Of a stretch of DNA of 32,142 bases, positions 2,706 through 25,704 are shown in pieces. This stretch comes from Euryarchaeota archaeon UBA596. GTDB taxonomy: Archaea; Thermoplasmatota; Poseidoniia; Poseidoniales; Poseidoniaceae. The notes below the pieces were generated by a model, which ran no database searches, was not told where the DNA came from, and worked only from the letters and a program-made list of their open reading frames with translations. Where the stretch lies: the NCBI GenBank assembly GCA_002498205.1, contig DAGQ01000056.1:1-32142 (forward strand), read 5' to 3'. Positions within the stretch are counted from its first letter, which is position 1, and each line of letters begins with the position of its first letter. The translations under genes and the position numbers were made by a program.

Positions 2706-2708
2706 TAA

Positions 2709-4241: not shown

Positions 4242-4251
4242 GGAGATAAAA

Positions 4252-5307
4252 ATGGAATTAAATGCCTGGCAGAAGATAGGCCATCGCCTTTTGGGTGGTC
4301 TTTTAAGAAAAAGGGCAAGAGGAGATAAAGAATTATCTAATAATATTCAAAGAGGTAACTTAAACATAATGCCAGAAGTTTTTATGGCAACTAGTATATT
4401 ATCTACAATAGCAACTGTTGGGATTTTAGTTGGGTTAAATGTACTCGTTTTTATGCCAGGAATTGGAGGTGTTGCATTATATGAAAATATTCAAGACCCT
4501 GTTTCAATCCCTCTTTGTGTAGATTGGGCATATTGGCATTCAGATGAGATTGATTATAATCTTAATTGGGGAGTTAATTCTGATGAATTTGGAGAAGTAC
4601 AGTATGGGGGATGTCCTTATTATCAAACTAAATCTTTTCCGGCTCCTTTGAAGATAGTTATTCCAGTACTAACTCTTGGTTTAGGGCCATTGTTGGCATA
4701 TAGAACTTTCATGGGTGGAGCTAAAAGAGCTGCAGAAATGAGATCAAAAGATATTGAAAAATATCTACCTTATGCTGCATCATATACTGCTGCTATGTCT
4801 GCAGCTAATGCAACACCACAGAAAATTTTCCGTTCATTAGCAAAGAACCAAGATATTTATGGAGAAATATCTCATGATTCTGCACAAATTTATAGAGATA
4901 CAAATCTTCTTGGTTTTGATTTAGTTACTGCAATTAAAATGTCTGTAGGAAGGGCAGCATCACCTTGGTTAACTGAGTTCTTTCAAGGAATGGAAGGTAC
5001 TTTAACAGCAGGAGGTAATCTCAAGATATATTTCTTAAATCGTGCTGAACATTACATGAGAGAGAATAGAACAAGATTGCACGTATTTTTAGAAACATTA
5101 GCAATGCTTGCAGAATCTTATGTTGTAGTTGCAGTGGCTATGCCTCTGTTTTTACTTGTAATGCTCGTAATTATGTTTTGGGTTAGTGGTTCTGGTTCTA
5201 CAATGGATGAAAGTACGCTTTACTTTATTGTGCTAGGATTTTTACCAATGATTCATATTGCTTATGGATATTTAGTCTGGGCAATGTCAGCAGATCAAAA
5301 TATGTGA
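4252..5307 (+). CDS. Polytopic membrane protein with one T2SSF (FlaJ/TadB/PilC-type platform) domain
   Basis: AAGGAGAT SD before the ATG. The cytoplasmic block KYLPYAASYTAAMSAANATPQKIFRSLAK...LLGFDLVTAIKMSV...AGGNL fits the T2SSF pattern. Hydrophobic helices at both ends. Follows the ATPase by 10 nt. Confidence 0.75.
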   Translation: MELNAWQKIGHRLLGGLLRKRARGDKELSNNIQRGNLNIMPEVFMATSILSTIATVGILVGLNVLVFMPGIGGVALYENIQDPVSIPLCVDWAYWHSDEIDYNLNWGVNSDEFGEVQYGGCPYYQTKSFPAPLKIVIPVLTLGLGPLLAYRTFMGGAKRAAEMRSKDIEKYLPYAASYTAAMSAANATPQKIFRSLAKNQDIYGEISHDSAQIYRDTNLLGFDLVTAIKMSVGRAASPWLTEFFQGMEGTLTAGGNLKIYFLNRAEHYMRENRTRLHVFLETLAMLAESYVVVAVAMPLFLLVMLVIMFWVSGSGSTMDESTLYFIVLGFLPMIHIAYGYLVWAMSADQNM

Positions 5308-5315
5308 GGTGGTGA
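5306..5315 (+). promoter_or_regulatory. Shine-Dalgarno site serving a TTG start, overlapping the upstream stop codon
   Basis: GAGGTGGTGA lies 4 nt before TTG at 5320. Confidence 0.6.
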
Positions 5316-5319
5316 AAAA

Positions 5320-6915
5320 TTGGCAAGAAAAAAGAAAAATAAATTAAAAGTTGATTTAGATCTTCCAAAAGATGATTCAACGATGACTTATTTTTATTTG
5401 ATTTGTACCGTTTCAATTATTCTTGGATTAATGTGTATGGGTTTTTGGTTTACAAATAGTAATTTTATGCCCGGAAATGATGATGCAGCTTTACCATTTT
5501 TTGTAAGTACTTATTGTCAAACTACAGCTCAAGACGAATTTGGTAACCCAAACCCTGAACCTTTTGCAAATGCTAGATTAGGATTAGAAACATCATACAA
5601 AGATAATGAAACATGTTCAATTTTAACAGATTCACCATCTCCCGCTGAATGGGTTTTAGATGACCCCTGGGAAGGGATGGATGGAAAGGCCAGATCTTTT
5701 CAAGTACCTGGATTAAAAGACTCACAACTTGCAGGAAAATCCCATCCATTACAGGAATTAAGAGTTGATTGTACAGCAGAATCATTAGATTATCCTACTT
5801 TAGAATACACTGTTAGTATTTTAGATGAAGATGAACAATTACCTGGTGATAGTTGGAGACATATAGGTAGAGCTAATGATAATGATTGTAGTATTTTAAT
5901 TGAACATGCTGACCCTGGAGAATATCAAATTAGATTAATTCCAGAGTGGCCTGAAGGAGTCTCTTCTGCTCCTGACTTTGAATTTAGTTTTACAGTAACT
6001 GCAATGGTTTATGATGGAATACCGAATTATATGAATAATAAATCACAATGGATTGGTCCAGAAGTAAATTTAGGAGGCTTCTCATTACATCCTACAATTT
6101 ATATTAACTTCTTTGGATTTGCTTTCTTTTTGATGATTTACCCAGCTTCAGTTTATTGGGATAGAGTACAGAGAAATATTAACGCAAGGGAAGAAAAATT
6201 TCCAGATTTTTTGAGGGACTTAGCAGAATATTGGAAGGGTGGTTTATCAATGACAGTGGCTGTTACATCACTTGCAAATTCAGAATATGGAGCATTAAAT
6301 GATGATGTAAAAAAGATGTCTAATCAGATTAGTTGGGGGGTGGCTTTTGGAGATGTATTGGAGTTATTTGCTGCAAGAGTAAATACTCCATTGGTTAAAA
6401 GAGCAGTTTCCTTAATTTCTGAGGCTAATAAGGCAGGGGGTAAAATCTCAGATATTCTTGTAACTGCAGCAAGTGATAGTAGAGAAATTAAATTTTTAGA
6501 GGGTGAGCGGAGCAGAACTATTTCATCATATATTGCAGTAATTTGGGTATCTTATTTGGTTTTCATGATTGTTATTGTTATTTTGTCAAGAGTATTTATT
6601 CCAGCGATTGCAGAATCAAATACAGGATCTGGCGGCGACTCTTCAGCACAAATTGGAAATATGCAAATTAGAGCAATAGATCCATTATTATTCTTAGTAG
6701 TTTTCTTTTATGGTGTTACTATGCAAGCATTAGGGAATGGGGCAATGGCGGGTTTAATGGCAAATGGAAGATTAAGTTCTGGATTTAAACATGCAGGAAT
6801 GATGTTAGTTTTAGCGATACTTTCCTTTACTTTTATTTCATTTATCCCTTCTTTGATTGGAGTGCCGACTAGTCCCGGTTTGAATCCTTCTATTGGAATG
6901 TTGAGGATAACGTAA
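5320..6915 (+). CDS. Second T2SSF-domain platform protein (TadC/FlaJ-like) with a ~230-aa extracytoplasmic N-terminal domain
   Basis: FPDFLRDLAEYWKGGLSMTVAVTSLA...ISWGVAFGDVLELFAARV...ISEANKAGGKISDIL is a textbook T2SSF domain. N-terminal TM (MTYFYLICTVSIILGLMCMGFWF), then a 4-Cys soluble region, then several C-terminal TMs. Confidence 0.8.
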   Translation: MARKKKNKLKVDLDLPKDDSTMTYFYLICTVSIILGLMCMGFWFTNSNFMPGNDDAALPFFVSTYCQTTAQDEFGNPNPEPFANARLGLETSYKDNETCSILTDSPSPAEWVLDDPWEGMDGKARSFQVPGLKDSQLAGKSHPLQELRVDCTAESLDYPTLEYTVSILDEDEQLPGDSWRHIGRANDNDCSILIEHADPGEYQIRLIPEWPEGVSSAPDFEFSFTVTAMVYDGIPNYMNNKSQWIGPEVNLGGFSLHPTIYINFFGFAFFLMIYPASVYWDRVQRNINAREEKFPDFLRDLAEYWKGGLSMTVAVTSLANSEYGALNDDVKKMSNQISWGVAFGDVLELFAARVNTPLVKRAVSLISEANKAGGKISDILVTAASDSREIKFLEGERSRTISSYIAVIWVSYLVFMIVIVILSRVFIPAIAESNTGSGGDSSAQIGNMQIRAIDPLLFLVVFFYGVTMQALGNGAMAGLMANGRLSSGFKHAGMMLVLAILSFTFISFIPSLIGVPTSPGLNPSIGMLRIT

Positions 6916-8442: not shown

Positions 8443-8579
8443 GAATTTTGCACCTAGCTCATTAAAGATATACATCGGTAAAAGTATTCACTCTTTTGAT
8501 TTTCTCAATTATTTTTTTCTTTAGGCTATTTGTCTTTAGAACCTCATATATCCAAAAGGTATTACTTTATCCGGATAAC

Positions 8580-9359
8580 ATGCCAGTGGAACTTGAGCCC
8601 ATTTCAGATAAAACAATACTAGTTACTTTAACTGACGAATCAGCAACAAATGCATTCGATCCAGACTTTATGTCCGAATTAGATTTAAAATTAAGACAAA
8701 TAATTGAGGATGATAAAATCCATTCATTTATTTTGACAGGAACTGAAAAATTTTTTTGTGCTGGTGCTAATATTAATGAATTCAGAAAACATTATGATAA
8801 AGGAACAATTGGTAAATGGATTAAAAAAATGACTGATATTTTACATCCTTTAATATTAAAAATTAGGAATAGCGATACAATAATGATTGCTGCAGTAAAT
8901 GGTGCAGCCGCAGGAGCTGGCTTGGGATTAGCACTTTCTGCAGATTATCGTATTGCATCTCCTGGAGGTAAATTTGCAGCATCATATTTTTCTTTAGGCT
9001 TATCTCCTGATGGCGGTACTAGTTGGTTATTACCAAGATTAGTAGGTTCACAAAAATCTAGGATCTTTTTCTTTGAGAATCAAGTTTGGTCAGCAGAAAA
9101 GTGTTTAGAGTACGGAGCGGTTGATGAATTGGTAGATGATGCCTCTTTAATTGAAAAATCGATTAAAAAAGCTAATGAATGGGGGAGTTGGTCAAAAGCA
9201 AGTCGTTCTAGTAAAGATTTACTGGATCATCAAGAGAACAATAATTTAGAATCACATTTAAAATTAGAACAAAGAAGAATTATTGATGCTGGTTTTACTC
9301 CTGAATTTTCAGAAGGTATCAATGCATTTTTAGAGAAAAGAAAAGCAGATTTTAATTAA
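8580..9359 (+). CDS. Enoyl-CoA hydratase/isomerase (crotonase) family protein
   Basis: FFCAGANINEF and NGAAAGAGLGLALSADYRIAS are crotonase oxyanion-hole motifs. The N-terminal 28 aa of the ORF-track call (from 8496) look non-coding. Confidence 0.85.
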   Translation: MPVELEPISDKTILVTLTDESATNAFDPDFMSELDLKLRQIIEDDKIHSFILTGTEKFFCAGANINEFRKHYDKGTIGKWIKKMTDILHPLILKIRNSDTIMIAAVNGAAAGAGLGLALSADYRIASPGGKFAASYFSLGLSPDGGTSWLLPRLVGSQKSRIFFFENQVWSAEKCLEYGAVDELVDDASLIEKSIKKANEWGSWSKASRSSKDLLDHQENNNLESHLKLEQRRIIDAGFTPEFSEGINAFLEKRKADFN

Positions 9360-10528
9360 ATTAAAGTAGCATTATTTTGAATATTCATTTCTTTAATCAA
9401 TTTTTTGAATTCTAATCTGACAATTGCTATGTTACTCTTCACCTCTTTAATTTTTAATTTCATAGTAATTCTATTTTGACGCCATGTTTCTTTGATTAAC
9501 ATTTTTCTATTCTTTTTAGCATCTTTATATTCAATTCTTTTCTTTTTGAGGTCTTTTAATAAATTTCTAATTTGTCTTGTACAATTTTTTAATCTTTGAT
9601 TATAGTCTTCTTTTATTTTTAGATTTAGATTATTTTCTTTGTGTTCATAAGAAGTTTTCATTCTGGCATTTTCAATTGACCATGAAGGGACTTTATGCAA
9701 GTTTTTTGTAATTTTTATGAATGAAAATACCCTTATCCACCATTTTGTTGGATCCCAATGGTACCATTTGTGTCCATTTCGATAATCTGTTTGAAATGTA
9801 TGATGGAAATTATGATATCCTTCACCAAATGTCAGTAAAGATAGAATTGGAGAATCTCTAGATGTATTTTTTGTGGAGTAGTTTTGCTTACCCCAATAGT
9901 GTGCCCCTGAATTAATTAAGAAAGTTCCATGATGAACCATTACAAGACGTACTAATCCTCCCCAAATAAATCCTCCAAAGAAACCTGTTAAACCCCCTAT
10001 TAGAAGCATTCCTATTAATCCCGGAAATATTATCCCAGCAAAACCACCAATTTTGAAAATATGCTTATCTTGCCATGCGAGAATTGGGTCTTCTTGTAAA
10101 TCTTTTACATGTTCGATTTTCTCTTCATCTTCAGAAACCATAACCCATCCCATATGGGCCCAAAAAAACCCCCTTACAATTGAGTATGGATCTTCCTCAG
10201 TATCAGTCTTTAGATGGTGTCTTCTATGATCACTGCACCATTTAATTACTGAATTTTGAAAGGCGGCAGCCCCAAAAATAGCATAAAATAATCTTAAAGG
10301 CCATGATGCAGAATAAGATCTGTGACTAAATAATCTGTGATATCCTGCAGTTATTGAGATTCCACTGACGACATACATAAAAAATAGAATGCCGATTTCA
10401 AAAAAAGAGATTCCAAAATTAACTGTGTACCAATACACACCAATAATTGCCAGAATTGGAGTTCCACATAAAAATGAAGCATTTAAGAGATCTAACTTCC
10501 ACTCCGGCTTATTTGAAACCTCACTCAT
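9356..10528 (-). CDS. Membrane acyl-CoA (delta-9-type) fatty-acid desaturase with a Lys-rich C-terminal coiled-coil extension
   Basis: Three His boxes: HRLFSH, HRRHH, HNFHH. Four hydrophobic segments. Confidence 0.88.
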   Translation of the reverse strand: MSEVSNKPEWKLDLLNASFLCGTPILAIIGVYWYTVNFGISFFEIGILFFMYVVSGISITAGYHRLFSHRSYSASWPLRLFYAIFGAAAFQNSVIKWCSDHRRHHLKTDTEEDPYSIVRGFFWAHMGWVMVSEDEEKIEHVKDLQEDPILAWQDKHIFKIGGFAGIIFPGLIGMLLIGGLTGFFGGFIWGGLVRLVMVHHGTFLINSGAHYWGKQNYSTKNTSRDSPILSLLTFGEGYHNFHHTFQTDYRNGHKWYHWDPTKWWIRVFSFIKITKNLHKVPSWSIENARMKTSYEHKENNLNLKIKEDYNQRLKNCTRQIRNLLKDLKKKRIEYKDAKKNRKMLIKETWRQNRITMKLKIKEVKSNIAIVRLEFKKLIKEMNIQNNATLI

Positions 10529-10636: not shown

Positions 10637-10738
10637 ATGGATAATATAATTTCTATTTGTAGAAAATGCGGTTTTACAATTGGTATTTTTGTACCAGGAA
10701 TGGAATGTCCTGAATGTGGTGAGTTAATATTTCCTTAA
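10637..10738 (+). CDS. Small (33 aa) zinc-ribbon protein candidate, absent from the ORF track
   Basis: My translation is MDNIISICRKCGFTIGIFVPGMECPECGELIFP, with CxxC...CxxC. Its stop overlaps the convergent stop of the dehydrogenase gene. No convincing SD. Confidence 0.35.
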   Translation: MDNIISICRKCGFTIGIFVPGMECPECGELIFP

Positions 10739-11643
10739 TTTAATGGCAAATCATCTCTTTCAGATTTTTGATTATTTATCCAATTGTAAATACCTTTATC
10801 GGTTTTTTTTCCTAATTCTCCTTTCTCAACTAATTTCTCTAATAATGGATGTGGTAAATAAGAAGAATCTCCAGTGGCTTCAGCAAGACCGAGTAATATA
10901 TCTCTTCTAACATCTAAACCCACTAAATCTGAAAGCTCTAGTGGCCCCATTGGATGTCTATATCCTAAATTCATAGCATAATCAATATCTGATGCACTAG
11001 CAACTCCTTCTGCAAGCATTCTAATCGCTTCATTCCCTAAGACTACACCTAATCTAGAGGTGGCAAACCCGGGACTATCTTTTACCACAATTGCAGTTTT
11101 ATTCATTGAACTTGCAATGTTTTTTGTAATTTCAACTATTTCATTTGATATTTCATCATGCTTAATAATTTCAAGTAATTTCATTAAAGGAACAGGGTTA
11201 AAAAAATGCATTCCAATAACTCTTTTTGGGTTTTTTGTCGATTTAGCAATTTTTGTAATTGAGAGACTAGATGTATTTGTCGCTAAAATACAATTAGGTT
11301 TAGTAAACTCATCAAGTTCTTGAAAAATCTTTATTTTTAAATCGATAATTTCGGGTACAGCTTCAATTACTAAATCAGCATCAGAAACTGCAGAAATTAA
11401 TTTATCAGATGTGTTCAAAAATGATGACCAAATTTCTTTTTGTTCTGTGGTTGTTTTCCCTTTACTAATTCCTTTATCCCAGAATGCATTAATTTTAGCA
11501 ATTCCATTTTTTATACTTTCTGGATATTTATCAAAAAGAATAGTTTCAAATCCACTCTCACAACAAACCTGAGCAATTCCTGCACCCATTGTCCCAGAAC
11601 CAATTACTGTAATTTTTCTTATTTCCAAATTATCACAAACCAT
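10735..11643 (-). CDS. 3-hydroxyacyl-CoA dehydrogenase (NAD-binding, HBD/PaaH-like)
   Basis: KITVIGSGTMGAGIAQ Rossmann motif, NTSSLSIT, and the C-terminal dimerisation domain (GFATSRL...GYRHPMGPLELSDLVGLD). Confidence 0.9.
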   Translation of the reverse strand: MVCDNLEIRKITVIGSGTMGAGIAQVCCESGFETILFDKYPESIKNGIAKINAFWDKGISKGKTTTEQKEIWSSFLNTSDKLISAVSDADLVIEAVPEIIDLKIKIFQELDEFTKPNCILATNTSSLSITKIAKSTKNPKRVIGMHFFNPVPLMKLLEIIKHDEISNEIVEITKNIASSMNKTAIVVKDSPGFATSRLGVVLGNEAIRMLAEGVASASDIDYAMNLGYRHPMGPLELSDLVGLDVRRDILLGLAEATGDSSYLPHPLLEKLVEKGELGKKTDKGIYNWINNQKSERDDLPLN

Positions 11644-11650
11644 GTCTAAC

Positions 11651-12211
11651 TTAAGGTTTTTTCATTTTTTGAGAATACCATTCTACTAATCCTAATTGTA
11701 ATAATCTTTGTCGAGGTAGAGCATATTCAGGTAAAGCCTCGGCTGGTGCATACAGCTTTAACCCCTCAATTACTGATACATATTTCGAATAGCAAGTCAA
11801 ATCATTTGGATCATAAGGAACATTCAAATTCATTAATTCTAAAGCTAAACATGCTTTTTCATCATAAATAGGATGAATATTTTTTAGAAAATGAAGCCAA
11901 TTTGATAATACGATACAATCTACATTCTCAATAGAAAGTAGATTTTCTATCATTGAAATATCGGGATATTTAGTGATTTCTAATGTTGAAATAATTTCCT
12001 GATTAATTTCATCATCCCAATCTTGTTCTTTAAATCCAATATATTCATTGATTTTTTTAATTTGATTATATCCATTTAGTTCCAAGGTATCATAAAGCAT
12101 TCTTTCATAGTTTGGATCTTCAATTTCAGAAATCTCTAATAATTCTGGCAATAAATTGAAAAAATCATTACATTCATTCGTATCAATCCCAAATAAGGAA
12201 GTAGGAATCAA
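11651..12211 (-). CDS. Acidic hypothetical protein (186 aa) embedded in the CoA-thioester cluster
   Basis: TTG start with a GGTGA SD 6 nt upstream. 14-nt gap to the upstream gene and 7 nt to the downstream gene. No motif I recognise. Confidence 0.6.
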   Translation of the reverse strand: MIPTSLFGIDTNECNDFFNLLPELLEISEIEDPNYERMLYDTLELNGYNQIKKINEYIGFKEQDWDDEINQEIISTLEITKYPDISMIENLLSIENVDCIVLSNWLHFLKNIHPIYDEKACLALELMNLNVPYDPNDLTCYSKYVSVIEGLKLYAPAEALPEYALPRQRLLQLGLVEWYSQKMKKP

Positions 12212-12217
12212 TTAGAT

Positions 12218-12222
12218 TCACC
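12218..12222 (-). promoter_or_regulatory. Shine-Dalgarno site serving a TTG start
   Basis: Minus-strand GGTGA lies 6 nt before TTG (12211..12209). Confidence 0.5.
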
Positions 12223-12225
12223 ATC

Positions 12226-13389
12226 TTATTGTAATTGGCCGATTCCAGAATCAATCATTCTTTGCGTAACAGCTCTATGTTCTATCCATTCTTTTTTGAA
12301 TAATTCTTTCAGATTTTCTTCATCTTCATCAGTAGGAAGGAATTTATTACAATATTCTTCATAACTTCCATCATCTTCTCCCCATTCATCTCCTTCTACA
12401 GTATATTGTTTACCAGCATAAGTTCCAATATTTCTATTGAATTTTTCATCTGCGACATAAAATGGAGTTTCATCTTCTAAAATTAGTTTGTTGAATTTCT
12501 CTTCAACTTCACGTACAATCTCATCATGATAATGTCCTCTAGATTCTTCATTGAGTTTTTCTTTATTTACTTCTTGATCTTTTTTAAGTTTCTTTCTCTC
12601 GTCCCATCTTCCTTTAATTCCCCATACGTATGCCCATTCAGCACTAGAAGAATTGTCAGTTCCGAATAAATCATGGGCCGTTGAAACCCATTTATTCATG
12701 TATCTTTGTAGTAAATCTCTAGGGATTACATTTGCTTTAATTATTCTACGCAATCCATTTGCTCCAGTTCCAAGGTGGAAAGCTTCTTCTTTCAACATCG
12801 GTCCCATACTTGCAGCTAATGGCTTGAAACTAGATGTTGACAACATTCCTAATTGGAATTTACCGTCCCTATCTACAAACATAGTATAACAGAAAAAGTC
12901 TAACCAATGATCCATTGGTTCATTAAATGCTCCAAGAAGTCTGCTTCCTGTTTGTGCATTTCTTTCAAGTAGTTTTTGTGCTTCACGTGCACCTTGTTTT
13001 CCAAAATAAGTCATTAACAAATAACACATTTGCCATCCATGGCGTTGTTCTTCAACCATAATTCTAGCAGCTGCATATCTGTCATAATCAGTAGGTGCTG
13101 ATTCTAACAAATGTTTTTGTTGTTCTACAGATGCAAATTCTGTATCTCCTTGGACAGTAATCATTGATAATAATGAGTCACGAATATTTTGGTGAGGTAT
13201 TTGTAAGGACCTTTCCCATTTTGGCCTCCCTGCATAATCGCCAAATTCAATTACTTCTCCAGCTCTTTCCCAGTCGAAAAGAGGTTTTAATTCAAAATCA
13301 CCAGCCCACTTTGCATCAAAGCCAACATTCTCTCTCCATAGTTCAAAATTTGCTACCCATTCGTCAAAAGTGGTTGGTAGTTTCCCCAT
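12226..13389 (-). CDS. Diiron-carboxylate oxygenase, BoxB-like (benzoyl-CoA 2,3-epoxidase family), shortened
   Basis: ITVQGDTEFASVEQQKH, VEEQRHGW, FVDRDGKFQLG and KEEAFHLG. The two ExxH motifs are about 88 residues apart by my count. ATG 13389 has a GTGGT SD; the ORF-track GTG at 13398 is less likely. Confidence 0.7.
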   Translation of the reverse strand: MGKLPTTFDEWVANFELWRENVGFDAKWAGDFELKPLFDWERAGEVIEFGDYAGRPKWERSLQIPHQNIRDSLLSMITVQGDTEFASVEQQKHLLESAPTDYDRYAAARIMVEEQRHGWQMCYLLMTYFGKQGAREAQKLLERNAQTGSRLLGAFNEPMDHWLDFFCYTMFVDRDGKFQLGMLSTSSFKPLAASMGPMLKEEAFHLGTGANGLRRIIKANVIPRDLLQRYMNKWVSTAHDLFGTDNSSSAEWAYVWGIKGRWDERKKLKKDQEVNKEKLNEESRGHYHDEIVREVEEKFNKLILEDETPFYVADEKFNRNIGTYAGKQYTVEGDEWGEDDGSYEEYCNKFLPTDEDEENLKELFKKEWIEHRAVTQRMIDSGIGQLQ

Positions 13390-13450
13390 GAGGACCACGT
13401 GTGAGTAAACGTATTTGAGTTTGTGTATTAGAGAATTTAATTATTACAAA

Positions 13451-14302
13451 TCATTCTCCAGTGAAGTTAGCTACTTTTTTATTCACATAAGCAGCAATTC
13501 CTTCTTTAGCATCATTAGACTGGAATAGATCTGATTGTAATTCACGTTCTAGTGCAAGATGGTATTCAAGCGGTAATTCAATTCCACTTTGTACACTTCT
13601 TTTGATATTTCCAACAGCTTTAACTGCTTTATTTGGTAAAGTAAATTGACCTGCCCAATCTAAAACATCTCTTCTAAAATCTCCAGCATCACTATCAAAA
13701 ATTTGGTTAACTAAATTCATATCATCTCCATCTTCAAATGAGATTAATTCTCCAGTAACCATTAACTCTAATGCTTTTGCTTTTCCAATAAGTCTCGTTA
13801 ACCTGGCTGTACCGCCTGTTCCTGCTAATACACCTAGGTTAATTTCTGGTAATCCTAATTTCCCTGCATTTTTTCTTGCGATTCTCATATCCGCCGCCAT
13901 TGCAATTTCCAAACCACCACCAACGGTATGGCCGTTTAATGCTGCAATTACTAATTTTGGAGTTTGTTCAAGGCGTGATAGAGTTTCATTTGCATGTAAA
14001 CAAAAGAAATATTTATAACGCGGAGAAAGACTATTTAGATAATTGATACTTGCACCAGCAGAAAAGAAATTATTTCCTTTTCCAGTAACTAAAATCACAG
14101 TTACTTTGTCGTCAAAACGTGCATTTAGAATTGCGGTATCTATATCTTCCCACATTTCACGAGTATATGTGTTTACAGGGGTTTTTCCGTCAGTCAGTGG
14201 TTTACCATCAGAATCTGAGGACAGTTCAATTATAGCGATTCCATTTTCGGTTACACCATAATTCACAAGGTTGTTAGGCATGGCTTCTAATTCAAGGCTC
14301 AT
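13451..14302 (-). CDS. Crotonase-family protein, resembling the N-terminal half of BoxC-type enzymes
   Basis: FFSAGASINYL and NGHTVGGGLEIAMAADMRIA crotonase motifs, plus LPEINLGVLAGTGGTARL. ATG 14302 has a GGTGGG SD 7 nt upstream; the ORF-track TTG at 14332 overlaps the upstream gene. Confidence 0.8.
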   Translation of the reverse strand: MSLELEAMPNNLVNYGVTENGIAIIELSSDSDGKPLTDGKTPVNTYTREMWEDIDTAILNARFDDKVTVILVTGKGNNFFSAGASINYLNSLSPRYKYFFCLHANETLSRLEQTPKLVIAALNGHTVGGGLEIAMAADMRIARKNAGKLGLPEINLGVLAGTGGTARLTRLIGKAKALELMVTGELISFEDGDDMNLVNQIFDSDAGDFRRDVLDWAGQFTLPNKAVKAVGNIKRSVQSGIELPLEYHLALERELQSDLFQSNDAKEGIAAYVNKKVANFTGE

Positions 14303-14328
14303 GTTCAGGCCCACCAGTAACCAGTTCT

Positions 14329-15600
14329 TCAATCACTCGCTTCTAGCATCTCTGGGATTGTTTCAGAATCTGAGTCTTTGGAGAAACTAATTTTTCCACC
14401 TTTTCTTTTAATCAGTTCCCATTCTTTCCCAATTTCTACAGCTCTTTCACTAGGGCTCCAAACATCTCTTTTTAGAGCATCCCTAAATGGCATTCTTCTC
14501 ATTTTTCTCCCATCTTTGGTAATTGTTTTTTTCAACATACCTAAATTAGCAAAGAAAAAAACTAATCTTCTAAAAATACCCCATTTGTAGATTTTTTCCA
14601 TAAAAAGTAAACCATCTCCATGCTTTTTTTGATGCTTCATCCAATATTTTGCAACTTGTTTAAATCCTCTATCGCCAATTCTATTCATAAGAAAACGATT
14701 AACAACAGATGTTTTTAATTTTGGTAATAATTTAGATTTGATTTCTAATTCATAATCTGTTTCTCCAAGAATGTCTTTGGCTGCATATACTCCACTGGTT
14801 ATGGCATATCTCATTCCAAAACCCCACATGAAATCTTGCAAACCTCCTGCTTCACCAACATAATATCGGCCATCAGATTTGTATGATGAATGAATTGCAA
14901 AATCTCCTTTTCCACCAACTCTTTTGATCGGAACTCTATCTAGTTCTGGATATTTCTTTTCATACCAATTTATTGTTTCATTTAGAAAACGATCTGATTT
15001 TGATTGTTGACGCCATAAACATGTACAAATCAGACCTATACCATCAATTACGATAAGATATGAGTATGCACCTGGAGCCAATTTATCATTTAGTTGAAAT
15101 GTGACATGATTTGGAAAATTTGTTTTAAAAACCTCCCCATAAGCCACTGCAGATGTCTTTTTTGGACCCGCAGCAATGATATCACAGTCTTTAGGTTTAA
15201 TTCTTGATTTATATTTTATTTCCACTCCTTCTTTCAAAGCAAGGCGCTTAAGTCCTTGATCGATTGTATGTTCATCACTTCCGCGTTCAACAACTCGGAA
15301 TGCTACTCTTGAACTCCAAGGTTTAGTAATTTCGTCATCTGGATGAGCCAAATCAATTTCATGAAAATCTGTGGATTTAAATGCCTCAGGATCAATTCCC
15401 CATTCTCTCAATTCCTCAAAAAAATCTGTTCCTGTTGTCCAATTTTCCAAACCTTGAAAATCACCATCAAATCTAGCTCCAGAATTTTCTCTGATATCAT
15501 GAATGACAACTTTTTTTCCACCCTTTGCTAAAATTATTGATGCAGCAAGCCCGGAAAGACCTGCTCCCATAATTACAATCGGCTTTGAATCATTTGCCAT
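14329..15600 (-). CDS. FAD-dependent oxidoreductase (geranylgeranyl-reductase / aromatic-hydroxylase fold) with a basic C-terminal extension
   Basis: IVIMGAGLSGLAASIILAKGGKKVVIHD dinucleotide-binding motif and YYVGEAGG (GD-type motif). Confidence 0.75.
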   Translation of the reverse strand: MANDSKPIVIMGAGLSGLAASIILAKGGKKVVIHDIRENSGARFDGDFQGLENWTTGTDFFEELREWGIDPEAFKSTDFHEIDLAHPDDEITKPWSSRVAFRVVERGSDEHTIDQGLKRLALKEGVEIKYKSRIKPKDCDIIAAGPKKTSAVAYGEVFKTNFPNHVTFQLNDKLAPGAYSYLIVIDGIGLICTCLWRQQSKSDRFLNETINWYEKKYPELDRVPIKRVGGKGDFAIHSSYKSDGRYYVGEAGGLQDFMWGFGMRYAITSGVYAAKDILGETDYELEIKSKLLPKLKTSVVNRFLMNRIGDRGFKQVAKYWMKHQKKHGDGLLFMEKIYKWGIFRRLVFFFANLGMLKKTITKDGRKMRRMPFRDALKRDVWSPSERAVEIGKEWELIKRKGGKISFSKDSDSETIPEMLEASD

Positions 15601-15708: not shown

Positions 15709-16131
15709 ATGAAAAACATCATCATCGAGATTTCAGAATCTGAACTTGATGCTGAATTATTGAAAAATAAATTAAATTTTGAAGGTTGTGGAGCAGTAGT
15801 TTCTTTTGTGGGAATAACTCGAGATTTAGAAGATGGAGAGCGTGTTTTACAATTAGAATTTGGTCTCTGGATTGAACAATTAAAACCCACCTTAAGTAGA
15901 ATTGCAGAAACAATTAAAGAAGAATTTGGGGTTAGTGGTATTGCTATTTCACATAGAGTTGGTACGGTTGGCCCTCAAGAAAATATCGTAGCAATTCATG
16001 TATGTTCAGCACATCGAAAAGAGGCATTTTTAGCTTGTAGTAAAATTATTGATGAACTTAAAATACAAGCACCATTGTGGAAGAAAGAAGTTACAGAGTC
16101 AGGGTCAAAATGGAAATCAGGGTTGGGTTAA
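15709..16131 (+). CDS. moaE: Molybdopterin synthase catalytic subunit
   Basis: GAVVSFVGITRD..., ISHRVGTVGPQENIVAIHVCSAHRKEAF and APLWKKE are collinear with MoaE. AGGTGA SD. Confidence 0.85.
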   Translation: MKNIIIEISESELDAELLKNKLNFEGCGAVVSFVGITRDLEDGERVLQLEFGLWIEQLKPTLSRIAETIKEEFGVSGIAISHRVGTVGPQENIVAIHVCSAHRKEAFLACSKIIDELKIQAPLWKKEVTESGSKWKSGLG

Positions 16132-16590
16132 ATGAGTAGAAATGAAGAAAATAAAATTGAAGCAATAATAGATGTAGGTGGAAAACCTATCGTACGAAGA
16201 GAGGCTATAGCTACAGGAACCGTATTTTTACAAGAAAAAACGATTTTGGCTATAGAAAATAATGAAATTTCTAAGGGTGATGTGTTAGAAGCATCAACTG
16301 TTGCGGTGATTCAAGCAGTAAAAGAAACACCCAGAATCATTCCACATTGTCATATTGTTCCAATAGAAAGTTGTAAAGTCGATTGGAGATTTGAAGGAAG
16401 AAACTTAAGGTGTACTGTTGAAGTTACAGCTCATTATCGAACTGGAGTAGAAATGGAGGCTTTAGTTGGTGTTTCTGCAGGATTATTGTGTGTTTTTGAT
16501 ATGGTTAAATCTTTTGAAAAAAATGAATTAGGGCAATATCCGGAAGCGCAGATTAATGAAATTAAAGTACTGAGTAAAAAAAAGGAATAA
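16132..16590 (+). CDS. moaC: Cyclic pyranopterin monophosphate synthase accessory protein
   Basis: KGDVLEASTVAVIQAVKET, IPHCH and TGVEMEALVGVS. The ATG directly abuts the moaE stop. Confidence 0.88.
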   Translation: MSRNEENKIEAIIDVGGKPIVRREAIATGTVFLQEKTILAIENNEISKGDVLEASTVAVIQAVKETPRIIPHCHIVPIESCKVDWRFEGRNLRCTVEVTAHYRTGVEMEALVGVSAGLLCVFDMVKSFEKNELGQYPEAQINEIKVLSKKKE

Positions 16591-16626
16591 AGCGAGTTTT
16601 GAAAACCTTCAACCTTTGCGCTATTC

Positions 16627-17574
16627 ATGGCCTTAGTTAGTGAACTGTCGAATTATTTCTTAGAAGCATGTGAACAAGCAGCTATAGCAAGTGCTGATTG
16701 GAGAGGTAAAGGAGATGGAAAAGCCGCCGATGCAGCGGCTGTAGAAGCTATGAGGAAGACCTTTGACAAAGTTCCATTCAACGGACGGGTTGCTATAGGC
16801 GAGGGTGAAAGAGATGAAGCCCCTATGTTGTGGATTGGAGAACCTTTAGGTTCAATGCAAGGAGATTTGGAAGCATTAGCTGTTGATATTGCAGTTGATC
16901 CATTAGAATGTACTACAAATTGTGCTACCGATTCACCAAATTCTATTTCTGTTTTAGCTGCAGCACCTAGAGGAACTTTGTTACATGCACCCGATTGTTA
17001 TATGGATAAAATTGCAGCTGGACCAGAATTAATTGGAGAAATCTCGTTAGAGGGTAGTGTGTCTTGGAACCTTGAACAAGCGGCTTCTAAATTAGATAAA
17101 CCAATTTCGGAATTGAATGTTGTTGCTTTAGATCGAGAAAGGCATACTCAACTGTTTAATGAAATAAATGGTGTAGGGGCTAAACTACATCTAATGTCAG
17201 ATGGTGATGTTTCAGCAGCACTTTGGGCGGCAGAACCCTCAGGGCCCTATGATTTATTGCTGGGAATCGGTGCTGCACCAGAAGGAGTAATTACTGCAAC
17301 GGCAATTGAGGGAATTGGTGGAGTATTTGAAGGACGTTTGAAGTTTAAAGATGCTGAAGAAGAAGAAAGAGCATCAAAAATGATAGATGATGATTTACAT
17401 AAAGTTTGGAAGTCCAATGAATTATGTAAGAGTAATGATGCATTATTTGTTGCTACAGGGGTTTGTACAGGTTATCTTCCAGGTGTGGAAAAGACAGAAA
17501 AAGGAATTAAAACTACTTCTCAAATTATCGATGTTTACAATAAAGATGTTAAATTAATTACTAATTTTCATTAA
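16627..17574 (+). CDS. glpX: Class II fructose-1,6-bisphosphatase
   Basis: WRGKGDGKAADAAAVEAMR, IGEGERDEAPML, VDPLECT and GIGAAPEGV are collinear with bacterial GlpX. Confidence 0.9.
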   Translation: MALVSELSNYFLEACEQAAIASADWRGKGDGKAADAAAVEAMRKTFDKVPFNGRVAIGEGERDEAPMLWIGEPLGSMQGDLEALAVDIAVDPLECTTNCATDSPNSISVLAAAPRGTLLHAPDCYMDKIAAGPELIGEISLEGSVSWNLEQAASKLDKPISELNVVALDRERHTQLFNEINGVGAKLHLMSDGDVSAALWAAEPSGPYDLLLGIGAAPEGVITATAIEGIGGVFEGRLKFKDAEEEERASKMIDDDLHKVWKSNELCKSNDALFVATGVCTGYLPGVEKTEKGIKTTSQIIDVYNKDVKLITNFH

Positions 17575-17641
17575 AAATATTAATTTTAGTCTTTGAATAA
17601 GATTATTAGAATAAAACAATTGAACGTTACAAGGGGATAAT

Positions 17642-18574
17642 ATGGAACCAATAGAAGCTTATATTCCAGCGGATGTTCCAGAAGAGTTAGTTGATGATTT
17701 TTTACAAAATTTAATGGCTGCTACAAGCGGAACAGGTAGAATGAATTTATTTGCATGTGACCAAAAAATTGAACATTTAAATGATGATTTTTATGACGGT
17801 GGGAAAAAAATACCTTTGACTTCAAATGATCCAAAACATTTGTTTGAAATAGGTTCTAGAGCACATAAAGAAGGAACAATCGGTGTGTTGGCAGGGCAAT
17901 ATGGACTCATTTCACGTTATGCTAAAGATTATCCTGATATTCCTTATTTGGTAAAGATGAATAGCAAATCACATCTTGTAAAAACAGCACAAAGAGAACC
18001 AATTAGTATGTCTATGTGTAATATGGATGATATCAATAATTTGAGATTGAATGGGGTAAATGTTGTAGGGATTGGATATACGATTTATCTTGGTAGTGAA
18101 CATGAACCTGAGATGTTGACAGAAGCGGCAATGTTGATTTCAGAAGCTCATCAACATGGTTTAATTGCTGTTACTTGGATTTATCCTAGAGGCTCTGCAG
18201 TGCCCGATGAATTTGATCCACAATTAATCTCAGGAGCTTCAGGATTAGCATGTTGTATTGGTGCAGATTTTACTAAAGTCAATTATCCCAAAGAACCTTT
18301 TGAGGGTATGACAATTCCAGAAAGTTTGGGAATTGCTGTAGAATCAGCGGGTAGGACTGGTCTGATATGTTCAGGCGGTGGAAGTTTACCTCCAGAACAA
18401 TTCTTGCATCGTCTTTGGGAACAAGTCAATATTTCTGGTGCTAGAGGTGCAGCAACTGGAAGGAACATTCATCAAAAACCGATAGAAGATGCTGTAAAAA
18501 TGTGTGCAGCGTGTCATGCAATAATTTGCAATGGTGCAACAGTTGAAGAAGCATTACAAATTTACAATAGTTAA
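17642..18574 (+). CDS. Class Ia (DhnA/FbaB, archaeal-type) fructose-bisphosphate aldolase family; ADH synthase is an alternative
   Basis: LFACDQKIEH, LVKMNSKS, GYTIYLGSE, GADFTKVNYP (Schiff-base Lys context) and GRNIHQ. Confidence 0.8.
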   Translation: MEPIEAYIPADVPEELVDDFLQNLMAATSGTGRMNLFACDQKIEHLNDDFYDGGKKIPLTSNDPKHLFEIGSRAHKEGTIGVLAGQYGLISRYAKDYPDIPYLVKMNSKSHLVKTAQREPISMSMCNMDDINNLRLNGVNVVGIGYTIYLGSEHEPEMLTEAAMLISEAHQHGLIAVTWIYPRGSAVPDEFDPQLISGASGLACCIGADFTKVNYPKEPFEGMTIPESLGIAVESAGRTGLICSGGGSLPPEQFLHRLWEQVNISGARGAATGRNIHQKPIEDAVKMCAACHAIICNGATVEEALQIYNS

Positions 18575-23705: not shown

Positions 23706-25544
23706 TTAGTAAACATCTCTTAGGTAACGCTTTTCATCTTTCATCAAAGTTTGGCTTACAAATTCAGTTGCTTTTTCTAATCCCATTCCGCCTTGTTCAG
23801 AACAAATTTTAATTAATGCAGCATGTACATCCTTTGCCATATAATTTTTATCACCGCATACATAGAAATATGCACCACCGTCAATCCATTCCCAAATCTC
23901 CTCAGCGTGTTCAAGCATTCTATTTTGTACGTAAATCTTTTCAGCTTGATCTCTAGACCATGCCGTGGTGAATTTGAATAGAGTTCCATCATCTAACCAA
24001 GATTCAATTTGTTCCTTGTAGTAGTATTCAGTAGCTTCGTGTTGATCACCAAAAAATAACCAGTTTTTCCCTGAAGATTTATCAAATTCTCTTTGTTCAA
24101 TAAATGCTCTAAATGGTGCAATTCCAGTTCCTGGACCGACCATGATAATATTCGTATCTCCATCTTCAGGAAGTAAAAATGATTTTGTTGCAGACATATA
24201 TACTCCAAATTGAGTCTCTCCAACATCAACATCATCTGCTAGATATCCAGTACAAAGGCCTGCACGATCACGATTATGATGATTATATCTTACAATTGCA
24301 ATGGTTAATTGAACTTCACCCGGATGAGCATCAGGAGATGAAGCAATAGAATATAATCGTCCTTTTAATTTATCCAAATATGATAAGAATTTTTCTGGCC
24401 TGTCAAATTTTAAGGATGGGAATTGTTCCATAGTATCAACATAATCTCTTGACCATATATAATCTTCAATGGAGTCATTATCTTTAGAGATTTCTTCTGC
24501 TTTAGCCGAAGGGTTATTTGTACTTTGGATAGGGTAATTTATTGGTAAAGGCTTTGTTTTATTTTCAAATTCCCAAGAAAAATTCATACCACTTCTCAAA
24601 TTTTCTCTCTCACTTTTAATTAATTGAATTTCTATCGATGTCTCAGAATTACTTGAAAGTAGTTCTGGTAAAGCTTTAACAAATTTTTTGTTTAATCTGT
24701 GAATTTCATAATCTTTCTTTAAAGCATCATAAAGTGTTACAGTTCCAGAATGAGATTCAACTTCTTGATCAGCATTAAATCCTAATAAGTCAATCAATGT
24801 ATTTACTGTATCCTCTGGATTTTCAGGGATGATTCCTATTGCATCTCCAGCTCTATATGTTAATCCACTATCTCCAAGAAGTATACTTACATGACGTGTT
24901 TCTTTTGTTGCCCCAGGGCCATTTAAAATATCTTTTTCACTTATTGTAGTCATATATGGATTTTTCATACTCCATTTGGTATCCTTTTCTTTTGTTTTAA
25001 CTTCCTTTGATTTTTCAGGCTTAATTTTATTTTCTGGAATAGTTGTTTCAATTTTTACAGAAACTTCTTCTACGGCTTCTGGAGTCACCTTTCCAACTAC
25101 TGCAGATATTGCAGGGAGTGCTCCGTTTGCCCACTCAGCATAAGGCTCATCAAAATCAACATCACAATCTTGTCTTGGGAATACTCTTTTTGCACCCAAC
25201 TCTTCCAATCGATTATCCCAATCTTTTCCAGATTGACAGTAGAATTCATAACTAGTGTCTCCTAATGCGCAAATAGAAAAATGAGTATTTTCCATTTTAG
25301 GGGCATCTCCTGCACTAATTGAATCCCATAAATCTTCAGCTGAATCAGGCATTTCTCCTTCACCCCATGTACTACAAATGATTAGAATTCTTTCTGATTG
25401 AGCCATTTGTTCTACACTTGTCTCTTCCATATCTTGAACCGTAGGAACAAGATTATGTGATTCTGCGGATTTGGCTAATTGTGATGCTAAATCTTCTGAA
25501 TTACCGGACTGTGTTCCGAATAAAATTAATACTTCTTTTGACAT
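23706..25544 (-). CDS. Diflavin reductase (CysJ / cytochrome-P450-reductase-like): flavodoxin domain plus FAD/NADPH domain
   Basis: ILFGTQSGNSEDLA (FMN), RLYSIASSP (FAD), MVGPGTGIAPFRAF (NADPH) and C-terminal YLRDVY. ATG 25544 has an AGAGGTAG SD; I reject the ORF-track start at 25601. Confidence 0.85.
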   Translation of the reverse strand: MSKEVLILFGTQSGNSEDLASQLAKSAESHNLVPTVQDMEETSVEQMAQSERILIICSTWGEGEMPDSAEDLWDSISAGDAPKMENTHFSICALGDTSYEFYCQSGKDWDNRLEELGAKRVFPRQDCDVDFDEPYAEWANGALPAISAVVGKVTPEAVEEVSVKIETTIPENKIKPEKSKEVKTKEKDTKWSMKNPYMTTISEKDILNGPGATKETRHVSILLGDSGLTYRAGDAIGIIPENPEDTVNTLIDLLGFNADQEVESHSGTVTLYDALKKDYEIHRLNKKFVKALPELLSSNSETSIEIQLIKSERENLRSGMNFSWEFENKTKPLPINYPIQSTNNPSAKAEEISKDNDSIEDYIWSRDYVDTMEQFPSLKFDRPEKFLSYLDKLKGRLYSIASSPDAHPGEVQLTIAIVRYNHHNRDRAGLCTGYLADDVDVGETQFGVYMSATKSFLLPEDGDTNIIMVGPGTGIAPFRAFIEQREFDKSSGKNWLFFGDQHEATEYYYKEQIESWLDDGTLFKFTTAWSRDQAEKIYVQNRMLEHAEEIWEWIDGGAYFYVCGDKNYMAKDVHAALIKICSEQGGMGLEKATEFVSQTLMKDEKRYLRDVY

Positions 25545-25704
25545 AAGACTACCTCTGTCACTCTGGACAATCTGTTCCAACATAACGTGATTCTTGAACA
25601 TAACGCTGCCACGATTTTAACTCCCGTCTCCTAAATGAGAAATAATGAGGTTATTTTTCAATTATTTCCGTCAAACCAATATGTGATTGCTGACTGTCAG
25701 GGGC

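Follow-up and report, generated by a model that had tools for sequence, protein, structure and literature searches.

The nearest described relatives of the locus reported here are two systems that epoxidize CoA thioesters. In the Box system of Azoarcus evansii and Burkholderia xenovorans (PDB entries 3per/3pm5 and 2w3p), BoxAB is the benzoyl-CoA epoxidase and BoxC the 2,3-epoxybenzoyl-CoA dihydrolase. BoxC has its active center in the N-terminal domain only, co-purifies with BoxB, and relieves BoxB of product inhibition, while BoxA acts transiently and in small amounts (PMC4498308). The iron ligands of BoxB are E120, E150, H153, D211, E240, and H243 (PMC5489048). In the Paa system, PaaABCDE acts together with PaaG, PaaZ, PaaF, and PaaH, and epoxidation of the thioester is followed by crotonase-family ring chemistry, aldehyde oxidation, and steps resembling beta-oxidation.

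Marine Group II (MGII) archaea are the most abundant archaea of the ocean surface. The window analyzed in this study, a stretch of 32,142 nucleotides, comes from an MGII archaeon of the Poseidoniales and has five ORFs at positions 10735-15600, all on the minus strand. Their products, in order along the cluster, are a flavoprotein of the PHBH/geranylgeranyl-reductase (GGR) fold, a crotonase (ECH1), a BoxB-like diiron protein, an acidic orphan, and a 3-hydroxyacyl-CoA dehydrogenase. The intergenic gaps, given as 7 to 52 nt in a preliminary description of this DNA, are 7, 14, 52-61, and 26 nt, depending in one case on the start codon. A fatty-acid desaturase gene adjoins the cluster in this lineage and is present only in its closest relatives. 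With a probability of roughly 0.58, we read the locus as a minimal form, previously uncharacterized, of the aerobic Box-type pathway by which CoA thioesters of aromatic acids are degraded. The interpretation offered in the preliminary description is supported in part.

The diiron protein (12226..13389, minus strand; PF05138, TIGR03225) is a putative short-form BoxB-like ferritin-fold acyl-CoA oxygenase. Its ORF, 12226-13398, yields 390 aa from a GTG and 387 aa from an ATG at 13389, the latter being the length of most close homologs. Against NCBIfam profiles it scored 215.6 bits with TIGR03225 (BoxB), far under the BoxB equivalog cut-off of 499.1 bits, and 43 bits with PaaA; against PDB sequences it matched BoxB (3per) with an E value of 3.9e-48 and PaaA with one of 1e-6. 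With a genuine BoxB from Mycetohabitans it shares 37% identity over residues 50-369, nearly the full length of that BoxB. All of the motifs listed in the preliminary description were found, ITVQGDTEFASVEQQKH at residue 80, VEEQRH at 115, FVDRDGKFQLG at 174, and KEEAFH at 203, and its two ExxH motifs (E117/H120 and E205/H208) lie 88 residues apart. In the alignment all six BoxB iron ligands are conserved, the predicted ligands being E87, E117, H120, D176, E205, and H208 in the 390-aa numbering. Seven second-shell residues of BoxB orient the benzoyl ring, and five of these are retained as well (Q116, T119, S123, F193, and F203), the substitutions being F206 to Y and T210 to V; among the 86 sequences for which ligand and pocket residues were tabulated, T210 is replaced by V or I in every short form, and F206 mostly by Y.

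The short forms nevertheless differ from canonical BoxB, from which they stand apart as a clade of their own, with the MGII sequences monophyletic inside it. The lengths given in the preliminary description for BoxB and BoxC, about 470 and about 550 aa, hold in Mycetohabitans (475 and 556 aa; BoxA, 404 aa), and the oxygenase of this locus is shorter than BoxB by about 85 aa, through one N-terminal and two internal deletions and a shorter C terminus. The superfamily also includes a minimal ferritin-like protein of 235 aa, PDB 4mud ([quoted passage not shown]), which aligns with residues 63-223 (E value, 1.7e-19) but is much shorter and lacks the C-terminal half found in both BoxB forms.

On these comparisons the protein groups with BoxB rather than PaaA, in agreement with the first assignment. 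It is very improbable that the protein functions as a phenylacetyl-CoA epoxidase of the PaaA type, although PF05138, the PaaA_PaaC family, takes in both enzymes, NCBI names some members phenylacetate-CoA oxygenase, and in Thermus a 40% identical ECH1 homolog, accompanied by an aldehyde dehydrogenase, lies beside a paaA/paaC epoxidase cluster (paaA_2), a context that fits the Box-type reading as well. Set against this are the fivefold difference in profile scores, the absence of PaaB, PaaC, PaaD, and PaaE genes from the locus, the BoxB-like pocket, and the reported lack of cross-reaction between BoxB and PaaA (PMC4498308).

The single-domain crotonase ECH1 (13451..14302, minus strand; PF00378) has 283 aa from an ATG at 14302, or 293 aa from a TTG in the longer ORF 13451-14332, whereas BoxC has two domains and about 556 aa. 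The preliminary description had likened it to the N-terminal half of BoxC from two stretches, NTYTREMWEDIDTAI and KYFFCLHANET, both of which are present, and the scores bear this out: orthologs of ECH1 matched the BoxC N-terminal domain with a median of 76 bits, and other crotonases of the same loci did so with 26-47 bits. Judged by sequence, ECH1 is thus the closest single-domain relative of the one catalytically active domain of BoxC, and it retains both catalytic glutamates (E132 and E153 in the 283-aa numbering), which align with those of BoxC. Its best PDB match is 2ppy, an "enoyl-CoA hydratase" from Geobacillus kaustophilus (218 bits, about 50% identity over the full length), which shares an FCxxxNET segment with BoxC and is also the top match of the BoxC N-terminal domain apart from BoxC itself, at 84 bits versus 68 for the next. 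This entry is a structural-genomics deposition, and we know of no function for it. The next best matches of ECH1 are ordinary enoyl-CoA or 3-hydroxypropionyl-CoA hydratases.

The linkage of oxygenase and crotonase genes, which mirrors the reported co-purification of BoxB with BoxC, is conserved across phyla. ECH1 and the short BoxB form the conserved core of the locus in 80 genomes from MGII, Acidobacteriota, Gemmatimonadota, and other groups, and the cluster is kept in both MGII families. Among loci with full flanks, an ECH1 ortholog (at least 50% identity, no more than 10 kb from the short BoxB) was found in all nine archaeal ones, all MGII, and in 38 of the 45 bacterial ones; in each of the 51 bacterial loci having ECH1, it lies on the same strand as the short BoxB, which stands alone on several other bacterial contigs. 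The system described at first as an archaeal variant is a distinct and uncharacterized one but no archaeal invention, since the pair is common to Acidobacteriota, Gemmatimonadota, Binatia, and others at about 50-65% identity and occurs in numerous soil bacteria. Unlike box operons, the short-Box loci have no BoxA, BoxC, BoxD, or benzoate-CoA ligase gene within 10 kb, and the MGII loci add two genes specific to that lineage.

The neighbors of the pair in bacteria include genes for a TetR regulator, an aldehyde dehydrogenase, PaaG-like and PaaF-like crotonases, a 3-hydroxyacyl-CoA dehydrogenase, and a 3-oxoadipyl-CoA-thiolase-like protein (541 bits versus a cut-off of 605). An Amidohydro_2 gene is common to short-Box loci and a canonical boxB-boxC locus of Nonomuraea. 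At one bacterial locus (L066) a neighboring gene encodes a Mo subunit that scores above the equivalog cut-off of TIGR03194, the alpha subunit of 4-hydroxybenzoyl-CoA reductase (1027 versus 994.6 bits), and homologs at least 60% identical to it occur at 15 further loci, making 16 in all. 4-Hydroxybenzoyl-CoA reductase produces benzoyl-CoA.

In MGII the cluster suggests an uncharacterized, O2-dependent route of aromatic-acid breakdown. As the preliminary description surmised, no Box-type pathway has been described in these planktonic archaea, although high expression of boxB had earlier been noted in MGII (PMC5069720), and this finding, like the strong transcription of a 3-hydroxyacyl-CoA dehydrogenase in MGII (PMC9723583), is in keeping with the Box-type reading. 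Beyond the note on the boxB transcript, the MGII literature examined makes no mention of aromatic use. MGII archaea have instead been described as degraders of lipids and peptides with incomplete beta-oxidation sets (PMC6336850), and the highly transcribed 3-hydroxyacyl-CoA dehydrogenase has been interpreted as part of beta-oxidation (PMC9723583). Also counting against the Box-type reading are the low TIGR03225 score, the loss of T210 from all short forms, the hydratase matches of ECH1, and the bacterial contigs with a solitary short BoxB. An unlikely alternative is a non-aromatic substrate: the diiron enzyme would serve lipid beta-oxidation in an auxiliary step, by hydroxylation, epoxidation, or desaturation of an acyl-CoA that is aliphatic, branched, or alicyclic, ECH1, which has both hydratase glutamates and resembles short-chain hydratases, would act with the dehydrogenase in ordinary beta-oxidation, and the GGR-like flavoprotein, whose homologs occur in lipid-modification loci, would saturate or desaturate C=C bonds. 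The adjacent desaturase would fit such a role, but its restriction to the closest relatives speaks against it, as do the largely conserved benzoyl pocket, the specific likeness of ECH1 to the BoxC N-terminal domain, and the thiolase-like, PaaG-like, and 4-hydroxybenzoyl-CoA reductase genes of the bacterial operons.

Under the Box-type reading, the short BoxB would activate O2 and most likely form a ring epoxide from benzoyl-CoA or a closely similar compound, drawing electrons from a donor that is either not dedicated to it or still to be found. A dedicated donor within the cluster had been proposed in the flavoprotein (14329..15600, minus strand; 423 aa, pI 9.2), which would replace BoxA and feed the diiron center, possibly with the orphan as mediator or effector. 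As stated in the preliminary description, the cluster has no BoxA: the flavoprotein shows no similarity to BoxA and has three Cys (139, 192, and 194), hence no Fe-S cluster motif. The orphan (11651..12211, minus strand; 186 aa) is acidic, as first noted, with a pI of 4.31, has no match in Pfam, NCBIfam, or PDB sequences, and has homologs in MGII only (28-96% identity); its AF2 model (pLDDT, 86.7) is all alpha, with nine helices, and gave no significant match in a fold search of the PDB (best E value, 0.88). In all complete MGII loci the flavoprotein gene adjoins ECH1 and the orphan gene lies directly downstream of the BoxB-like gene, and both pairs are intact even where an inversion parts them. 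This adjacency, the complementary pI values, and the absence of another reductase from the cluster favor a flavoprotein reductase, which we nonetheless regard as doubtful. Neither protein occurs at any of the 66 short-Box loci of bacteria, which evidently function without them, and the orphan has two conserved Cys only and no metal-cluster or flavin motif. The flavoprotein has a weak NCBIfam match to GG-red-SF (27.8 bits), and the top Foldseek matches of its AF2 model (pLDDT, 83.7) are substrate-acting enzymes, GGR (4opt), FixC (7koe_C), and squalene epoxidase (TM score, about 0.55); its bacterial homologs (31-35% identity) adjoin FabI and cyclopropane-fatty-acyl-phospholipid-synthase genes, with no diiron oxygenase nearby. 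To our knowledge, PHBH/GGR-fold proteins do not serve as diiron reductases. The two proteins are lineage-specific MGII additions, the flavoprotein a candidate electron donor or C=C-modifying enzyme and the orphan a putative accessory or structural partner.

A diflavin NADPH reductase (23706..25601, minus strand; Flavodoxin_1, FAD_binding_1, and NAD_binding_1) is a further candidate donor, in which a flavodoxin domain would take the place of the 2x[4Fe-4S] domain of BoxA. Its gene lies 8 kb from the cluster, and the C-terminal half of BoxA shares 31% identity with its FNR module (E value, 2e-15), but this similarity is that of the generic module. The gene adjoins that of a biotin carboxylase, and in MGII loci beyond the lineage of the window the 10 kb around the BoxB-like gene do not contain it. 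We consider this proposal unlikely.

In the Box-type route, ECH1 would most likely receive the epoxide and open the ring hydrolytically, the role of the BoxC N-terminal domain. The dehydrogenase (10735..11643, minus strand; 302 aa, PF02737 and PF00725), the final gene of the operon, would then carry the product towards 3-oxoadipyl-CoA by an oxidation of the 3-hydroxyadipyl-CoA type, so that the order of steps would parallel that of the Paa system. The enzyme had been called PaaH-like, a label too specific for it: it reached 235.6 bits against PaaH, under the cut-off of 669, and its best NCBIfam matches were 3-hydroxyacyl- and 3-hydroxybutyryl-CoA dehydrogenases at about 320 bits. Short-Box loci with such a gene number 12 in archaea and 20 in bacteria. 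The window itself has no gene for a CoA ligase, a thiolase, an aldehyde dehydrogenase, or a pathway reductase, so the pathway is not demonstrably complete for this organism; an aldehyde dehydrogenase and thiolase encoded elsewhere would assist, together with a second crotonase, ECH2 (8496..9359, plus strand), whose membership is tentative. ECH2 resembles PaaG (131.8 bits) and the "oxepin-CoA hydrolase, alternative type" (NF046063; 176.9 bits, cut-off 300), its best named matches, both under cut-off, and it is possibly a lower-pathway isomerase or hydratase. Of 14 MGII loci, 8 have it no more than 10 kb from the BoxB-like gene, and other MGII lineages pair it with an aldehyde dehydrogenase.

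The core of the five-gene cluster, a short relative of the diiron epoxidase BoxB together with a single-domain crotonase related to the N-terminal catalytic domain of BoxC (BoxC-N), is a real module, a variant of the Box system common to Marine Group II archaea (MGII) and several bacterial phyla. The MGII version adds a 3-hydroxyacyl-CoA dehydrogenase and two lineage-specific proteins, a flavoprotein and an orphan. We know of no Box-type pathway described in Archaea. All five minus-strand ORFs of the preliminary description exist as it described them, and every motif that it quoted was found. They encode the dehydrogenase (10735-11643, assigned by Pfam and NCBIfam), the 186-aa orphan (11651-12211, no match in either database), the diiron protein (12226-13398 from a GTG start, or 387 aa from the ATG at 13389, Pfam family PaaA_PaaC), the crotonase ECH1 (13451-14332, or 283 aa from the ATG at 14302, assigned by Pfam and NCBIfam), and the 423-aa flavoprotein (14329-15600, weak dinucleotide-binding and geranylgeranyl-reductase matches only), with gaps of 7, 14, 52-61, and 26 nt between them. 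The dehydrogenase scored 205.7 bits on PF02737 and 104.1 bits on PF00725, above the gathering score of each, and fell below the PaaH equivalog cut-off (235.6 versus 669.4).

The diiron protein had been claimed as a BoxB relative, and grouping it with BoxB rather than with PaaA was borne out by each comparison. It scored 215.6 bits on the BoxB model TIGR03225 and 43 bits on the PaaA model TIGR02156 (cut-off, 280); the BoxB structure 3per was matched with an E value of 3.9e-48 and PaaA structures with about 1e-6. A PaaA identity was rejected on these scores. By BLASTP, residues 50-369 were 37% identical to the annotated BoxB of Mycetohabitans, which comes from a complete bcl-boxC-boxB-boxA operon, and no PaaB-, PaaC-, PaaD-, or PaaE-like genes were found in the window. 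The window protein nevertheless reached under half of the BoxB equivalog cut-off of 499.1, which a bacterial short form from locus L049 (245.5 bits) did not attain either. Relative to BoxB (387 versus about 470 aa), one N-terminal and two internal segments are missing and the C-terminus is shorter, and in a neighbor-joining tree the short forms (about 370-390 aa) make up a clade apart from canonical BoxB. The nearest homologues of the window protein belong to “Candidatus Poseidoniaceae,” to Poseidonia, and to marine metagenomes, the protein of locus L020 (a contig from a “Methanobacteriota archaeon” metagenome-assembled genome [MAG]) being 96% identical. With the archaeal genes elsewhere in the window, these homologues identify its source as an MGII archaeon. 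A 79% identical homologue, P0010, carries the NCBI label “Deltaproteobacteria bacterium” and is probably from an MGII contig placed in the wrong genome bin. Database names for the short forms are inconsistent, ranging from BoxB (JGI) to PaaI or “phenylacetic acid catabolic protein” (NCBI).

In Azoarcus BoxB, the diiron center is ligated by E120, E150, H153, D211, E240, and H243 (PMC5489048). Their equivalents in the short BoxB, numbered from the GTG start, are E87, E117, H120, D176, E205, and H208; among the short forms, only the outlier P0172 departs from this conserved set of six. Seven second-shell residues of BoxB orient the benzoyl group, and five of them (Q116, T119, S123, F193, and F203) are identical in the short BoxB. 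At the other two positions the window protein carries F206->Y and T210->V; position 206 stays F in one MGII lineage (L022-L027), and V or I replaces T210 in almost all members of the short-form clade.

The suggestion that the crotonase recalls the N-terminal half of BoxC was also upheld. ECH1 is a clear member of PF00378 (ECH_1; 151.8 bits versus a cut-off of 27), its best PDB match (218 bits, about 50% identity) is the Geobacillus “enoyl-CoA hydratase” 2ppy, in an alignment that covers the very FCxxxNET stretch that had been linked to BoxC, and the PDB matches that follow are ordinary hydratases. Aligned directly, ECH1 and BoxC were 31% identical across the N-terminal 200 residues (E value, 1e-19), and both catalytic Glu residues matched up. 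The reciprocal PDB search with the N-terminal half of BoxC is decisive: it returned BoxC first, then 2ppy, a member of the ECH1 family, at 84 bits, and all other crotonases clearly behind at 68 bits or less, which marks ECH1 as a specific relative of BoxC-N. Within the collected loci, ECH1 orthologues likewise scored a median of 76 bits against BoxC-N, compared with 26 to 47 bits for other co-located crotonase types. The two tandem crotonase domains of BoxC (about 550 aa) were not found in ECH1, which is a single domain of 283 aa. According to a review (PMC4498308), the N-terminal domain of BoxC is the only one with an active center, which has two Glu residues; BoxC is purified together with BoxB, whose product inhibition it relieves; and the action of BoxA is transient and involves small amounts. 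Given these properties, a single-domain BoxC-like crotonase genetically linked to a BoxB-like oxygenase without a dedicated reductase gene makes a coherent minimal system.

Relatives of the short BoxB were collected by scanning one genome per GTDB species, which returned at least 594, and 80 loci were kept. Fourteen of the 80 short-form loci belong to MGII; the others, at 47-54% identity, come from Acidobacteriota (Terriglobia, Acidoferrales, Sulfotelmatobacter), Gemmatimonadota, Binatia, Eremiobacterota, and other groups. Synteny was assessed by tblastn of the window proteins against all loci, an ECH1 orthologue being counted at 50% identity or more within 10 kb. Such an orthologue (typically 55-66% identical) accompanied the short BoxB in all nine archaeal and 38 of 45 bacterial loci with full flanks, and the two genes shared a strand in every one of the 51 bacterial loci having ECH1. 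Twelve archaeal and 20 bacterial loci had the dehydrogenase; among the 80, the flavoprotein and the orphan were confined to MGII. The core is thus more widespread than the preliminary description supposed: bacterial phyla share the short BoxB and ECH1, which are no archaeal invention. Homologues of BoxA, BoxC, and benzoate-CoA ligase were absent within 10 kb in all 80 short-form loci, while the canonical loci L001 and L094 do have boxC. The distant short forms P0122, P0124, P0128, and P0163 are stand-alone genes with no informative neighbors. Two apparent features of the collection were discarded, a 636-aa fusion ORF in L034 as a wrong-frame artifact of a high-GC contig and an ORF cluster (“unk322”) as probable antisense noise over ECH1.

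Both MGII families retain the cluster, which occurs in two arrangements. That of the window reads GlpX<MoaC<MoaE / FAD>ECH1>BoxB-like>orphan>dehydrogenase (FAD being the flavoprotein), and the other reads DeoC<ECH1<FAD / MoaE>MoaC>GlpX>HTH>BoxB-like>orphan>EamA>dehydrogenase. The flavoprotein-ECH1 and BoxB-like-orphan pairs are intact throughout both. In some MGII lineages the MoaE-MoaC-GlpX(-DeoC) block (15709-18574, plus strand, in the window; also L005, L014, and L017-L019) separates the two pairs, and in other lineages it lies outside them, a shift in position that points to an inversion sparing both pairs. In the second arrangement, an HTH_10 (bacterio-opsin-activator-type) regulator, absent from the window, sits directly upstream of the BoxB-like gene (L005, 9420-9941; L006, 500-1123).

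The flavoprotein heading the cluster is, as first described, not a BoxA: it has three Cys residues in all, no Fe-S motif, and no significant similarity to BoxA, which combines a 2x[4Fe-4S] ferredoxin with an FNR-like FAD/NADPH domain. Its predicted structure (pLDDT 83.7) has the fold of p-hydroxybenzoate hydroxylase and geranylgeranyl reductase (PHBH/GGR); the best Foldseek matches were GGR, FixC, and squalene epoxidase (E value about 4e-13, TM about 0.55), and the score on the geranylgeranyl reductase model TIGR02032 was 27.8 versus a cut-off of 158.8. The protein is basic (pI 9.2). Its adjacency to ECH1 is constant across MGII. The further proposal that it acts as a novel reductase partner of the oxygenase fared poorly, its genes being confined to MGII among the short-Box loci. 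Homologues in the plasmid collection, from Halomonas, Sulfitobacter, and Roseibium only (31-35% identity over residues 6-351), adjoin genes for FabI, the cyclopropane-fatty-acyl-phospholipid-synthase family, an SDR, and cardiolipin synthase, with no diiron oxygenase nearby, and this lipid-gene neighborhood argues against a dedicated replacement for BoxA. The reductase hypothesis is weak. The neighborhood favors an enzyme that would act on an acyl-chain C=C bond, although such a role does not account for the constant adjacency to ECH1.

Another candidate donor, a 631-aa diflavin NADPH reductase (23706-25601, minus strand; flavodoxin, FAD_binding_1, and NAD_binding_1 domains), shares with BoxA only the generic FNR module (31% identity to the C-terminal half of BoxA), and MGII loci outside the window's own lineage show no linkage between its gene and that of the BoxB-like protein. 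It adjoins a biotin carboxylase and a PfkB kinase (22333-25601, minus strand). The orphan is acidic (pI 4.3), with an all-helical model (pLDDT 86.7) and no match to a sequence family or PDB fold. It evolves much faster than the neighboring BoxB-like protein, with 28-41% versus 59-73% identity between MGII families. A PaaB/PaaC-like or ferredoxin-like subunit was rejected, the model not being ferritin-like and the protein having no Cys cluster; the simplest guess is an accessory or structural partner of the oxygenase.

Clues to the substrate come from bacterial contexts. In Gemmatimonadales the operon order is TetR-ECH1-aldehyde dehydrogenase-thiolase-PaaG-like crotonase-short BoxB-GDPD-dehydrogenase-PaaF-like crotonase-Amidohydro_2, with the thiolase scoring 541 bits (cut-off, 605) on the 3-oxoadipyl-CoA thiolase model. 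In L066 (12372-16491) and 15 other acidobacterial loci, genes for a three-subunit xanthine-oxidase-family molybdoenzyme directly follow the short BoxB and crotonase genes. The L066 large subunit passes the 4-hydroxybenzoyl-CoA reductase alpha equivalog cut-off (1027 versus 994.6 bits), and those of the 15 further loci are at least 60% identical to it; the beta subunit best matched the corresponding model of the same reductase, and the gamma subunit scored nearly equally on reductase and glyceraldehyde dehydrogenase models, both subunits staying below cut-off. The product of 4-hydroxybenzoyl-CoA reductase is benzoyl-CoA; the enzyme, known from anaerobic aromatic pathways, is unusual beside an O2-dependent epoxidase. 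The Amidohydro_2 gene occurs in 33 short-Box loci and also after boxC in a canonical locus of Nonomuraea gerenzanensis (L094, 9001-13704), which has a canonical-type BoxB, a BoxC 57% identical to that of Mycetohabitans, and no boxA within 9 kb. The 11.8-Mb L094 record, classed as a plasmid, carries hardly any annotation. Thermus plasmids have an ECH1 homologue (40% identity) in an aldehyde dehydrogenase-crotonase-TetR unit next to a paaA/paaC cluster; on pTF24b of Thermus thermophilus (L098, 5535-12230), where this cluster is a second paaA/paaC copy, the unit resembles a ring-opening module without PaaZ.

Together, the bacterial contexts point to epoxidation of an aromatic acyl-CoA ring, hydrolytic opening, and beta-oxidation to 3-oxoadipyl-CoA. 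From homology and context, we put the probability that the cluster carries out aryl-CoA epoxidation and ring opening at roughly 0.6. Only part of the putative pathway is visible for this genome, because no aldehyde dehydrogenase, thiolase, CoA ligase, or BoxA is encoded within the window. A second crotonase, ECH2 (8496-9359), resembles PaaG and alternative oxepin-CoA hydrolase, below cut-off, and is paired with an aldehyde dehydrogenase in other MGII lineages.

MGII are uncultured and among the most abundant surface-ocean heterotrophs, with carbon sources deduced almost wholly from genomes; if the cluster serves aerobic aryl-CoA dearomatization, aromatic dissolved organic matter would join their diet. 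A Red Sea metatranscriptome lists boxB (benzoyl-CoA oxygenase) among highly expressed MGII genes (PMC5069720). In a coastal study (PMC9723583), six non-ribosomal genes had high transcript levels in each of the three MGII MAGs, one of them encoding a 3-hydroxyacyl-CoA dehydrogenase, which may be other than the cluster's own; neither that transcriptomic study nor the genomic study PMC6336850 mentions an aromatic pathway in MGII. Literature searches found nothing on Poseidoniales and BoxB, nothing relevant on short-Box systems in Acidobacteria or Gemmatimonadetes, and no characterization of the short-form clade.

A much bolder combination appears improbable: a “mini-Box” pathway in MGII and large groups of Acidobacteriota and Gemmatimonadota that would dearomatize and open benzoyl-CoA-type rings without BoxA, the MGII flavoprotein and the acidic helical orphan, with a new fold, forming a new electron-delivery/effector pair for diiron oxygenases, and the most abundant surface-ocean archaea being direct consumers of aromatic dissolved organic matter. 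For enzymology, the short BoxB and single-domain crotonase offer a compact system of two proteins, for which structural genomics has already supplied the structure of a relative (2ppy). Such a system could reveal which segments BoxB and BoxC can do without and how an epoxidase lacking BoxA receives its electrons.

Scanning the window for tRNAs and Rfam families gave no hits. Immediately downstream of the cluster, a membrane fatty-acid desaturase (9356-10528, minus strand; PF00487, 92 bits for the DesA family) whose long C-terminal tail is rich in Lys is present in the closest relatives only (L002 and L020) and absent from other MGII loci. Two long ORFs lie outside any Pfam family (19689-21377, plus strand, 562 aa; 29919-31451, minus strand, 510 aa). 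Cdc6/Orc1 and type IV pilus-type genes mark the window as archaeal, and the segment at 50-6915 (plus strand) encodes a large protein with F5/8 type C (discoidin) domains, after which come a type IV pilus/archaellum-type ATPase and a pair of T2SSF membrane proteins.
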